DNA of 64,000 nt from Hyphomicrobiales bacterium (GTDB lineage Bacteria; Pseudomonadota; Alphaproteobacteria; Rhizobiales; UBA4765), in assembly GCA_965247525.1 (NCBI GenBank), contig OZ252015.1, positions 1,759,485 through 1,823,484 on the forward strand. Reading direction: 5' to 3'. The notes under the pieces were generated by a model. The model was given only the letters and a program-made list of their open reading frames with translations, was not told the origin of the DNA and did no database searches. Position 1 is the first letter of the stretch, and each line of letters begins with the position of its first letter. The translations under genes and the position numbers were made by a program. Below, piece by piece: positions 40,757-42,009 of the stretch.

Positions 40757-41374
40757 CTACTGTTTGCGCCACATAAAGTCGACAAATTTGTCCTGAGATA
40801 TTTGACTTTCTGTTCCGCCCATGGCTTTAAAAAGAGCAGGGACATATTCTGTAAGTGGCACTTCTATTTCATCAGAAGGTGCATCTGAGTAAGCTTGAGA
40901 AACAATTTGGATGAGCTGTTCAAATGGTTTGTCCTCATTCAATATCCAAACCTTTAAAGGATCTTTGGAAGAAAAGTCTGGATTTATACTGTCTGCTTGT
41001 CTTGCAAAAGCATTGCCAAATTTTGGCGCTAAAGCTGCAAAATCATCATAATTGTAATTGGGAAGGCCTGTGCGGCCTGAAGGCCTGAAGTTTACTGAGT
41101 TTTGCAAGCTGTCTACAAGTTTTGCAGCAGCTATATTATTACTGCAAACGCCTGTATCAGGACACTCAGCCAAAGCGCGTGCAAACTTTACAAGCCTTTC
41201 TTTGGTTATTCTAATGGATTTTGACAGGGTTTTATCATCAACCTTATTGTCATTTGAAGTCTTACTGTTTTGACGCAGCATCGTACTGAAGTTTTCACTG
41301 TCGAGTGTCCGGTGTTTTTGATTTGCGCTTTTGCTAACAGGTATTTTTTTGACGCTTAAGCTTCCGTTGACCAT
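40757..41374 (-). CDS. hypothetical 205-aa protein, paralogue A of a tandem pair
   Basis: The start is set at the ATG at 41374 (GGGAG 8 nt upstream; MVNGSLSVKK). The C-terminal ~140 aa are identical to paralogue B. Confidence 0.6.
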   Translation of the reverse strand: MVNGSLSVKKIPVSKSANQKHRTLDSENFSTMLRQNSKTSNDNKVDDKTLSKSIRITKERLVKFARALAECPDTGVCSNNIAAAKLVDSLQNSVNFRPSGRTGLPNYNYDDFAALAPKFGNAFARQADSINPDFSSKDPLKVWILNEDKPFEQLIQIVSQAYSDAPSDEIEVPLTEYVPALFKAMGGTESQISQDKFVDFMWRKQ

Positions 41375-41391
41375 TTTTCGCGCTCCCGTTT

Positions 41392-42009
41392 TTACTGTTT
41401 GCGCCACATAAAGTCGACAAATTTGTCCTGAGATATTTGACTTTCTGTTCCGCCCATGGCTTTAAAAAGAGCAGGGACATATTCTGTAAGTGGCACTTCT
41501 ATTTCATCAGAAGGTGCATCTGAGTAAGCTTGAGAAACAATTTGGATGAGCTGTTCAAATGGTTTGTCCTCATTCAATATCCAAACTTTTAAAGGATCTT
41601 TGGAAGAAAAGTCTGGATTTATACTGTCTGCTTGTCTTGCAAAAGCATTGCCAAATTTTGGCGCTAAAGCTGCAAAATCATCATAATTGTAATTGGGAAG
41701 GCCTGTGCGGCCTGAAGGCCTGAAGTTTACTGAGTTTTGCAAGCTGTCTACAAGTTTTGCAGCAGCTATATTATTACTGCAAACGCCTGTATCAGGACAC
41801 TCAGCCAAAGCGCGCGCGTATTTTACAAGGCGATCCTTTGTAATTCTGGCGCTTATTAAAGTGGTACCGTCGACAGCCCCCTTTTTAAGATTTTGGTTTG
41901 CAGTCGTTTTATTTTTGCCCAATAAAGAATTAAAGCTATCAGGGACATCAACGCGATGCTTACGCACAATTTGGCTTTTATTTGATACCTTTAAGTGACC
42001 ATTTGTCAT
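41392..42009 (-). CDS. hypothetical 205-aa protein, paralogue B of a tandem pair
   Basis: The start is set at the ATG at 42009 (AAGGCGGAG 6 nt upstream; MTNGHLKVSNKS), which aligns with the start of paralogue A. Confidence 0.6.
   Translation of the reverse strand: MTNGHLKVSNKSQIVRKHRVDVPDSFNSLLGKNKTTANQNLKKGAVDGTTLISARITKDRLVKYARALAECPDTGVCSNNIAAAKLVDSLQNSVNFRPSGRTGLPNYNYDDFAALAPKFGNAFARQADSINPDFSSKDPLKVWILNEDKPFEQLIQIVSQAYSDAPSDEIEVPLTEYVPALFKAMGGTESQISQDKFVDFMWRKQ

Follow-up and report, generated by a model that had tools for sequence, protein, structure and literature searches.

The stretch of alphaproteobacterial DNA analyzed here (contig OZ252015.1, positions 1,759,485 to 1,823,484; hereafter, the window, meaning the whole 64,000 nucleotides) comes from a genome of about 2 Mb and about 55% guanine plus cytosine (GC) that belongs to an uncultured lineage, and contains, next to the core genes of a type III secretion cluster, a tandem pair of genes, A and B, each encoding a protein of 205 amino acids (aa). 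The two genes are arranged head to tail on the minus strand, with a start-to-start period of 635 bp; their 3' two thirds are nearly identical, and their 5' thirds are strongly diverged. The history behind this pattern and the likely destination of the two proteins are the subject of the present analysis. The pair and its immediate surroundings comprise:

40757..41374, minus strand: gene A (protein P0003), an open reading frame (ORF) of 205 aa; an identical protein is present in a public collection.
41392..42009, minus strand: gene B (protein P0001), 205 aa, the upstream copy of the pair.
40757..41179, minus strand: probable gene-conversion tract, copy A, encoding residues 66-205, nearly all of the folded domain.
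41392..41814, minus strand: probable gene-conversion tract, copy B (repeat family D1).
41180..41374, minus strand: diverged 5' third of gene A, encoding the polar N-terminus and the start of helix 1.
41815..42009, minus strand: diverged 5' third of gene B, whose orthologous counterpart is the 5' part of the lone gene in the closest strain, L002 (6 differences in 204 nucleotides, nt).
41375..41391, minus strand: 17-nt spacer AAACGGGAGCGCGAAAA, from the stop codon of B to the ATG of A, with a GGGAG ribosome-binding site 8 nt upstream of that ATG.
40745..40762, minus strand: terminator-like hairpin CAGTAGTTTTTTCTACTG with a T-rich tail, overlapping the stop codon of gene A and facing a convergent 67-aa gene; a consensus match only.
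42010..42343, minus strand: AT-rich intergenic stretch preceding gene B, in which sigma-70-like consensus matches occur.

When the two copies are compared at the fixed offset of 635 bp, the 423 nt at 40757-41179 and at 41392-41814 show exactly two mismatches, namely, the third base of the stop codon (40757; TAG in A, TAA in B) and a synonymous change in a lysine codon (40952), which is the single internal difference between the copies. On the 3' side, the homology stops exactly at the stop codon, the sequences beyond it being unrelated from the first base. On the 5' side, identity is about 75% over the approximately 30 nt that adjoin the tract (KFARALAE versus KYARALAE) and about 46% over the remaining part, with 92 mismatches and 18 gap columns among 204 columns. 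Were the differences spread evenly along the genes, the probability of finding no more than two of them in 423 nt would be 3e-33. The preliminary description of this DNA, made by reading the sequence, had reported the tandem, its period, the two differences in 423 nt and the moderately diverged stretch next to the tract, and the ORFs and the fixed-offset comparison agree with it on all these points; the segment CPDTGVCSNN that it placed in the conserved part is, likewise, common to both proteins. Its view of the N-terminal 60 or so residues as nearly unrelated was, however, an overstatement: over 51 aligned positions, the N-termini of A and B are 39% identical at the amino acid level and are homologous (BLASTP E = 5e-5), with a local alignment score of 59, compared with 26 +/- 5 for shuffled sequences, none of 2000 of which reached 59.

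The family to which the pair belongs is extremely rare. With gene B as the query, about 5.8 billion protein clusters yielded four proteins (the two window proteins, P0002 and P0004), a profile search of 1.84 billion cluster representatives recovered 11, and two further profile searches added three members with Sec-type leaders; in all, the searches led to 16 family proteins among about 15 billion. Scans of GTDB species genomes and JGI metagenome contigs with the family pattern found no further relatives. Copy number in related genomes, the comparison of which had been proposed at the outset, could be established for two of them. P0002, which is 83% identical to gene B, is encoded on an 18-kb contig, L002, that comes from the same species as the window (flanking proteins 97-100% identical; 10.6 kb aligning at 95.7% nt identity) and spans the whole block of small genes around the pair, from p450 to the region upstream of sctJ; it carries one family member and no GNAT gene. 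The sister lineage, with core DNA about 84% identical, is represented by a 1.86-Mb contig, L001, that encodes two dispersed paralogues: P0009 (243 aa, in the place that A and B take in the window; 24% identical to gene B) and P0004 (203 aa, directly upstream of sctJ; 49-50% identical). On a 2.3-kb JGI contig, L020, the member P0013 (26% identical) is found in the same micro-synteny, the order being a homologue of a 113-aa gene that also neighbors the pair, P0013, and then two convergent genes, the first small and the second larger.

Three genomes could thus be compared, with synonymous divergence (dS) computed between the window and L002 for each gene segment and for the flanking genes, and the comparison reveals a mosaic. 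Over nt 1-204 of the gene, where A and B are about 46% identical, L002 and B show six differences (dS 0.07). Over nt 205-369, A and B are the same, L002 and B show seven synonymous differences (dS 0.22), and A has the state of B at all seven. Over nt 370-615, A and B are again the same, and L002 differs from B at 78 positions, with dS of 1.5 and nonsynonymous divergence (dN) of 0.28. The single gene of L002, then, tracks B over nt 1-369, and beyond nt 370 is separated by dS of 1.5 from both window copies; its 5' side is collinear with B, and its 3' side with A and the 67-aa and ~400-aa genes (77%). Because dN/dS in the diverged 3' segment (nt 370-615) is about 0.18, selection on this segment is purifying overall. 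Between A and B, dS in the tract is 0.012, and the flanking genes of the window and L002 differ by dS of 0.02-0.10. The tract is sharply bounded, and the divergence of the paralogues within it (dS 0.012) lies below that of the orthologues (0.02-0.22), which is the signature of gene conversion; no more than one difference would be expected in 411 nt with a probability of 0.003 if the rate of the flanks applied, and of 4e-7 if that of the same segment did. Given these values, A and B were homogenized after the window genome had split from its closest strain, L002.

The paralogy itself, by comparison, appears to be old. N-terminal identity is 39% between A and B, 40% between B and P0004, and 33% between A and P0004, with local alignment scores of 59, 92 and 62, respectively, compared with about 26-30 for shuffles, and the similarity of the N-terminus of A to P0009 is also above chance. 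Since the N-termini are homologous, yet have diverged as much as they have between lineages, it is highly probable that A and B are old paralogues with a mosaic history, the 3' two thirds of which were recently homogenized by gene conversion, the mechanism that the preliminary description had offered as an alternative. The conversion tract would run from inside helix 1 of the predicted fold to the end of the homology at the stop codon, such that conversion would have homogenized the folded domain and spared the more diverged N-terminal third. Conversion could have proceeded in either direction, and at least one further recombination event would be required for the L002 mosaic, a pattern that would be expected from unequal crossover of B by A or from a breakpoint of the hypervariable block inside the gene. 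Partial gene conversion between tandem paralogues is a well-known, ordinary process. The pair shares with such concerted evolution an identical tract bounded on one side by the end of homology, a paralogue dS far below the orthologue dS, and a sister strain with a single mosaic copy, and differs from it in the extent of the tract, which coincides almost exactly with the folded domain and leaves out the N-terminal third. The boundary between the domain and the N-terminal third may reflect just where identity sufficed for recombination.

A different mechanism, terminal reassortment, whereby unrelated termini from different genes come to flank a shared domain, had been suggested for the pair on account of its seemingly swapped N-terminal region; this mode of evolution is said to have been originally described by Stavrinides et al. 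in 2006. As a concept, terminal reassortment of type III effectors is cited in passages of PMC6460904 and PMC7406222. A and B resemble such cases in being secretion-linked paralogues that share one terminus and differ at the other. However, their N-termini are homologous to each other (E = 5e-5) and to those of the orthologues, rather than being unrelated sequences on a shared domain, and no unrelated donor gene was identified; because of this homology, terminal reassortment in the above sense is not the mechanism.

A milder variant deserves closer consideration, namely, a recent tandem duplication of a single, whole ancestral gene (single-copy being the state of L002), after which the downstream copy would have exchanged its 5' third, by recombination, for that of a divergent allele from another strain; this would be a form of terminal reassortment. 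That L002, the closest strain, has a single copy across the whole block, that the block is a recombination hot spot with highly divergent alleles (42% identity for the ~400-aa protein and 51% for the 67-aa protein, in strains that are otherwise 97-100% identical), and that the GNAT gene was likewise inserted in the window genome only, are all compatible with such a scenario. The L002 gene, however, makes a poor precursor because its own 3' part has diverged, differing from both copies in nt 370-615 (dS 1.5), so that it is not a simple precursor; the N-terminus of A is homologous to the family and about equidistant from B and P0004, a position compatible with either an old paralogue or an imported allele; and recombination with a breakpoint at the same place is still required. 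On balance, we consider a recent duplication unlikely, and retain conversion between old paralogues as the explanation of the tract.

The two proteins combine a basic N-terminal part with an acidic domain. The N-terminal 55 or so residues are rich in serine, threonine, asparagine and lysine, with an isoelectric point (pI) of 10.2-10.7 (10.2 in A), and the folded domain has a pI of 4.8 (4.85 in A). The initial statement that roughly the first 25 residues include no acidic one agrees with the sequences, the first acidic residue being at position 25 in A and at position 21 in B. An AlphaFold2 model of the gene B product, built from an alignment of 13 sequences (A3), has a mean predicted local distance difference test score (pLDDT) of 78.5 and a predicted template modeling score (pTM) of 0.68. 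Residues 1-52 of the model score below 50 in pLDDT, and a confident alpha/beta domain spans residues 53-205 (mean of 75 in the block 51-60 and of 82-97 in the later 10-residue blocks), with helices at 58-68, 83-92, 109-119, 167-170, 174-184 and 194-204, and strands at 106-108, 125-129, 140-144, 156-159 and 171-173. As modeled, the conversion tract (residues 66-205) would correspond almost exactly to the folded domain, and the diverged part to a tail predicted to be disordered, together with half of helix 1. The domain of A and B contains a CX5C loop.

No known domain had been recognized by eye, and database searches bear this out: comparison of both proteins with Pfam, NCBIfam, PHROGs and PADLOC yielded nothing above noise, and a Foldseek search of the model against the PDB and BFVD produced no match with E <1. 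A match to Put_DNA-bind_N at E = 0.054 was dismissed as noise. The check for enzyme or immunity homology by remote-homology and structure searches, proposed in the preliminary description, was likewise negative, in that neither a cytoplasmic enzyme nor an immunity protein emerged as a homologue from Pfam, NCBIfam, PHROGs, PADLOC or the profile searches. No PADLOC or PHROGs profile match points to an anti-phage defense or phage family; a toxin-immunity pair was rejected, both genes being of one family; and a substrate switch domain (T3S4/SctP) was discarded following a negative Pfam scan that included the FliK family PF02120, with no structural match. A weak likeness to EF-hand proteins (PF00036, PS00018; Entamoeba histolytica CaBP1, PDB 1jfj and 2m7n) is detectable over the last 45 or so residues, where the family profile matches the Entamoeba CaBP with E = 0.02-0.03 and where the model of the gene B product shows helix-loop-helix geometry (residues 174-204). 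Pfam EF-hand_1 (PF00036) matches two family members, with a best E of 0.0015, and the canonical loop of PROSITE PS00018 is present only in the Sec-type members P0008 and P0011. The loop of the window proteins, MGGTESQISQDKF, no longer has the calcium ligands at positions 1, 3 and 12, so that the EF-hand-like C-terminus is degenerate; these proteins match neither PS00018 nor a Pfam EF-hand family, and Foldseek returns no EF-hand protein as a structural match.

The genomic context of the pair is that of a secretion system. The window holds flagellar genes (flhA, fliF, fliK and a sigma-54 activator gene) and, separately, an injectisome cluster in the order Y4YQ_C-domain protein, sctV, sctU, sctT, sctS, sctR, sctQ, 167-aa gene, sctN, sctL, 228-aa gene, sctJ. 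As judged by sequence, this cluster is a type III secretion injectisome of the Rhc type, of which a split secretin (rhcC1) is the hallmark (PMC3973906). The best plasmid relatives of its SctJ are those of Sinorhizobium, Rhizobium, Paracoccus and Bradyrhizobium, at 33-44% identity, and the best relatives among GTDB species genomes, at 62-67%, come from metagenome-assembled genomes of uncultured Alphaproteobacteria/Pseudomonadota. The relevant genes, beyond the pair, are:

26880-27884: gene for the Y4YQ_C-domain protein of the injectisome cluster.
27894-30044, plus strand: sctV (FHIPEP) of the injectisome.
37598..38395, minus strand: sctJ (rhcJ; TIGR02544, 214 bits), the first core gene of the secretion operon downstream of the block.
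38468..39058, minus strand: GNAT acetyltransferase gene (Pfam PF00583), of low GC, between the ~395-aa gene and sctJ.
39232..40419, plus strand: hypervariable gene for a protein of ~395 aa (409 aa if the ORF is read from the TTG at 39190), 42% identical to the L002 protein and 52% to that of L001.
40531..40734, plus strand: 67-aa gene that converges with gene A; its product and the L002 counterpart share 51% identity, and a small gene is at this position in L001, L002 and L020.
42344..42685, minus strand: 113-aa gene, upstream of the pair; it lies beside a family member also in L002 (98% identical), L001 (27%) and L020 (27%).
42746..42973, minus strand: 75-aa gene, rich in Ser, Thr and Ala codons, the first after the divergent rhcC1-like gene.
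43188..44291, plus strand: rhcC1-like gene, divergent from the block, with a partial match to TIGR02516 (model positions 3-136), corresponding to the N-terminal part of a secretin.

The pair thus sits between sctJ, from which three genes separate it, and the divergent rhcC1-like gene, in a block of 38-44% GC that consists, along the minus strand, of the 75-aa gene, the 113-aa gene, B, A, the convergent 67-aa and ~395-aa genes, and the GNAT gene. With the exception of GNAT, the block proteins have no match in Pfam, NCBIfam, PHROGs or PADLOC, and for the ~395-aa protein there is no Pfam or PDB sequence match. The product of the 75-aa gene may be a pilin or needle-type subunit. The 113-aa gene is located at 9324-9665 in L002, 6605-7027 in L001 and 218-589 in L020. 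The GNAT gene is missing from L002, which has about 218 nt in its place, and from L001, where P0004 is found instead; the gene was apparently inserted into the secretion cluster in the window genome alone. When the window is compared with L001, the core secretion proteins are 83-99% identical, whereas identity is 49% for the pair, 52% for the ~400-aa protein and 42-55% for block proteins; when it is compared with L002, the flanking proteins are 97-100% identical and the ~400-aa protein just 42%. Such extreme divergence of the block fits products that would be exposed or interact with a host; it is to be weighed, however, against the purifying selection noted above for nt 370-615.

Some further peculiarities of the block and its neighbors are worth recording. 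A recombination breakpoint is apparent inside the paralogue gene, at about nt 370-390, and the region of the ~395-aa and 67-aa genes behaves as an allelic-replacement hot spot. In five of the six proteins of the small-gene block, the sequence begins with M-x-N (MTN, MLN, MTN, MVN and MSN, for the genes at 42746-42973, 42344-42685, 41392-42009, 40757-41374 and 39232-40419, respectively), a preference that is not general in L001 or L020 and could reflect translation initiation or an export signal. The rhcC1-like protein has internal short repeats, AIPQASG and AVRAERSG (DNA repeat families D4-D7), and varies in length, with 367 aa in the window, 379 aa in L002 and 346 aa in L001, to the last of which it is 70% identical. 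Just past its gene, at 44683-48159 on the plus strand, a protein of 1158 aa with 18-aa repeats (TQQTTAAANPYAALFGLG) and no Pfam match is encoded; being 97.5% identical to its L002 counterpart and 55% to that of L001, it is another fast-evolving candidate secreted protein.

The family divides sharply by the type of N-terminus, with leaders called from a Kyte-Doolittle hydropathy scan only. Nine of the 16 members (P0005-P0008, P0010, P0011 and P0014-P0016, all unannotated) possess a hydrophobic Sec-type leader, with hydropathy maxima of 2.6-3.3. The remaining seven, that is, the window pair, P0002, P0004, P0009, P0012 and P0013, lack a hydrophobic segment (maximum at most 1.2); for the window proteins, the maximum is 0.4-0.5, and the scan detects no Sec-type signal peptide. 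These leaderless members have, instead, a polar N-terminus of 55-70 residues with a shared motif, [DE]-x-F-x-x-x-L...N. Five of the seven are encoded in secretion-system loci, and P0013 is in matching micro-synteny; on the contigs of P0012 (1.4 kb or less), no neighboring genes are visible. No secretion system was found near the Sec-type members in the four contexts that were fetched. P0010 (L025 1-7104, an ENA farmland soil contig) lies in a row of about 11 co-directional small genes with about eight copies of a 120-nt repeat between them, an arrangement that resembles an integron cassette array. The window proteins and the Sec-type homologues have in common the domain of about 150 residues, with its C..(S/T)(G/K).C loop and the motifs R..GR.G...L.F.DF..L...YGNA, W.LN and, at the C-terminus, F(V/I).FM..KQ, and differ in what precedes it, a signal-peptide-like N-terminus in the homologues and a polar one in A and B.

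Because homologues elsewhere carry Sec-type leaders, the family domain very probably functions in an extracytoplasmic location. For members encoded with an injectisome, type III export would be the obvious replacement for the Sec route, and the polar N-terminus would act as the type III export signal, possibly with a chaperone-binding region, such that A and B would be type III substrates, whether as effectors that are translocated or as accessory components of the apparatus outside the cell. The generic composition of type III substrates is, indeed, found in both (no Sec leader, polar, poor in acidic residues, and disordered in the gene B model), although this likeness is compositional and not specific. 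The connection with type III secretion that had originally been drawn from composition is strengthened by the location of the pair in an Rhc-type cluster, by the conserved small-gene block and by the comparison of leaderless and Sec-type relatives. We regard export of A and B by the type III system as moderately likely on these sequence grounds, and put the probability of the reading as a whole, in which A and B are old tandem paralogues that were subject to gene conversion and are exported by the type III system, at roughly 0.6.

Among known substrates, the closest parallel by position is NopB/NolB, a type III-secreted, pilus-associated rhizobial protein that is encoded directly upstream of rhcJ and divergently from rhcC1 (PMC3973906). 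The pair, too, lies between the rhcC1-like gene and sctJ, though with three genes separating it from sctJ, and its L001 orthologue P0004 is directly upstream of sctJ; furthermore, the sizes are similar (164-206 aa for NolB, 205 aa for A and B), and both families combine a conserved C-terminal part with a variable N-terminal one. However, the C-terminal motif of NopB, ...VSLVSKG.SGITSSVNKLL, is absent from the pair, and membership in the NopB/NolB family was rejected, hhalign giving a probability of 0.5% against Bradyrhizobium NolB and 0.13% against an alignment of five NolB sequences. A 203-aa gene of Paracoccus located upstream of sctJ was also rejected. The C-terminus of the 113-aa neighbor, SSLITISKNLSENVPRTLTQG, resembles that of NolB (VSLVSKG.SGITSSVNKLLK.G) by eye, which makes this protein a better candidate for a NopB analogue than the pair; its comparison with NolB by hhalign gives a probability of 0.1%, leaving the likeness unsupported.

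A number of observations weigh against export and against the history proposed above. There is no tts-box-like match in the block, no hrp box upstream of the pair and no 10-mer or promoter motif common to the upstream regions of the block, although the regulator of this lineage may differ; nor was a chaperone identified. Some leaderless accessory proteins of secretion systems stay in the cytoplasm. The structure model is underlain by a shallow alignment (13 sequences), and the difference in L002 dS between the two halves of the tract (0.22 versus 1.5) means that several recombination events must be assumed. Finally, within 10 kb of the 11 GTDB loci found via SctJ (33-67% identical), no protein of the family is encoded; because these more distant secretion loci are without one, the family is not a general component of the apparatus.

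Conceivably, the proteins could be cytoplasmic, functioning as regulators, chaperones or adaptors of the injectisome, with the polar N-terminus being merely a flexible tail. Their genes are, after all, located within the secretion cluster; many secretion chaperones share the acidity of their folded domain (pI 4.8); and neither a promoter box nor a chaperone gene links the pair to known substrates. Set against this are the Sec-type leaders of the homologues outside secretion loci, the failure of Foldseek to find a secretion chaperone or any other solved fold, and the identity of the pair to its L001 counterpart, 49%, compared with 83-99% for the core, which consists of cytoplasmic and inner-membrane proteins, such that the pair resembles exposed components more than internal ones. 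A cytoplasmic role, accordingly, seems quite unlikely to us, and export remains the preferred interpretation. Still less credible, and in our view highly improbable, is an assembly artifact in which two strain alleles were joined or a repeat was wrongly expanded: although the source genome (2.04-Mb contig) is probably derived from a metagenome, a closely related strain (L002) has one copy and an exact repeat of 423 nt can confuse short-read assemblers, the junction is specific and unique (the stop codon of B, a 17-nt spacer with a well-placed ribosome-binding site, and the start of A) rather than a copy of the region upstream of B, the flanks differ from the first base after the stop and are distinct for each copy, an internal synonymous difference separates the copies, and L001 has, independently, two paralogues in the same block.

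The pair also invites a bolder proposition, which strikes us as decidedly doubtful: that the arrangement is functional, with recurrent conversion keeping the domain identical and selection keeping two export or chaperone-binding modules different. One activity could then enter the injectisome by two routes, corresponding to different stages, chaperones or conditions, and the family would have switched between Sec and type III export.

Several features of the window lie apart from the pair. There are two FHIPEP genes, the flagellar flhA (11974-14094, minus strand) and the injectisome sctV, so that two export systems are encoded less than 20 kb apart. Adjoining flhA is a 373-aa ORF (10775-11896, minus strand) with no Pfam match and 40% GC, in surroundings of 55-59%. 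A luxI/luxR-type pair, encoding an autoinducer synthase and an autoinducer-binding protein, is located at 52868-54273 and has a GC content below that of its surroundings; at 60750-63014, there is a gene for a protein of 754 aa that contains canonical EF-hand pairs; and tRNA genes are present at 24970-25043 (plus strand) and 55414-55485 (minus strand).

From its sequence features, the pair represents a candidate for a new, very rare family of type III substrates shaped by ordinary recombination. If this interpretation is true, it would add an undescribed type III-exported family, from an alphaproteobacterial lineage with a small genome, for whose Rhc-type injectisome no substrates are known. 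The occurrence of one and the same domain behind either a Sec leader or a polar, probably disordered N-terminus would offer a natural comparison for the recruitment of a protein to type III export. More broadly, the locus would be a clean example of a block of exposed components evolving by allelic replacement, duplication and gene conversion, next to a core machinery that remains nearly invariant.

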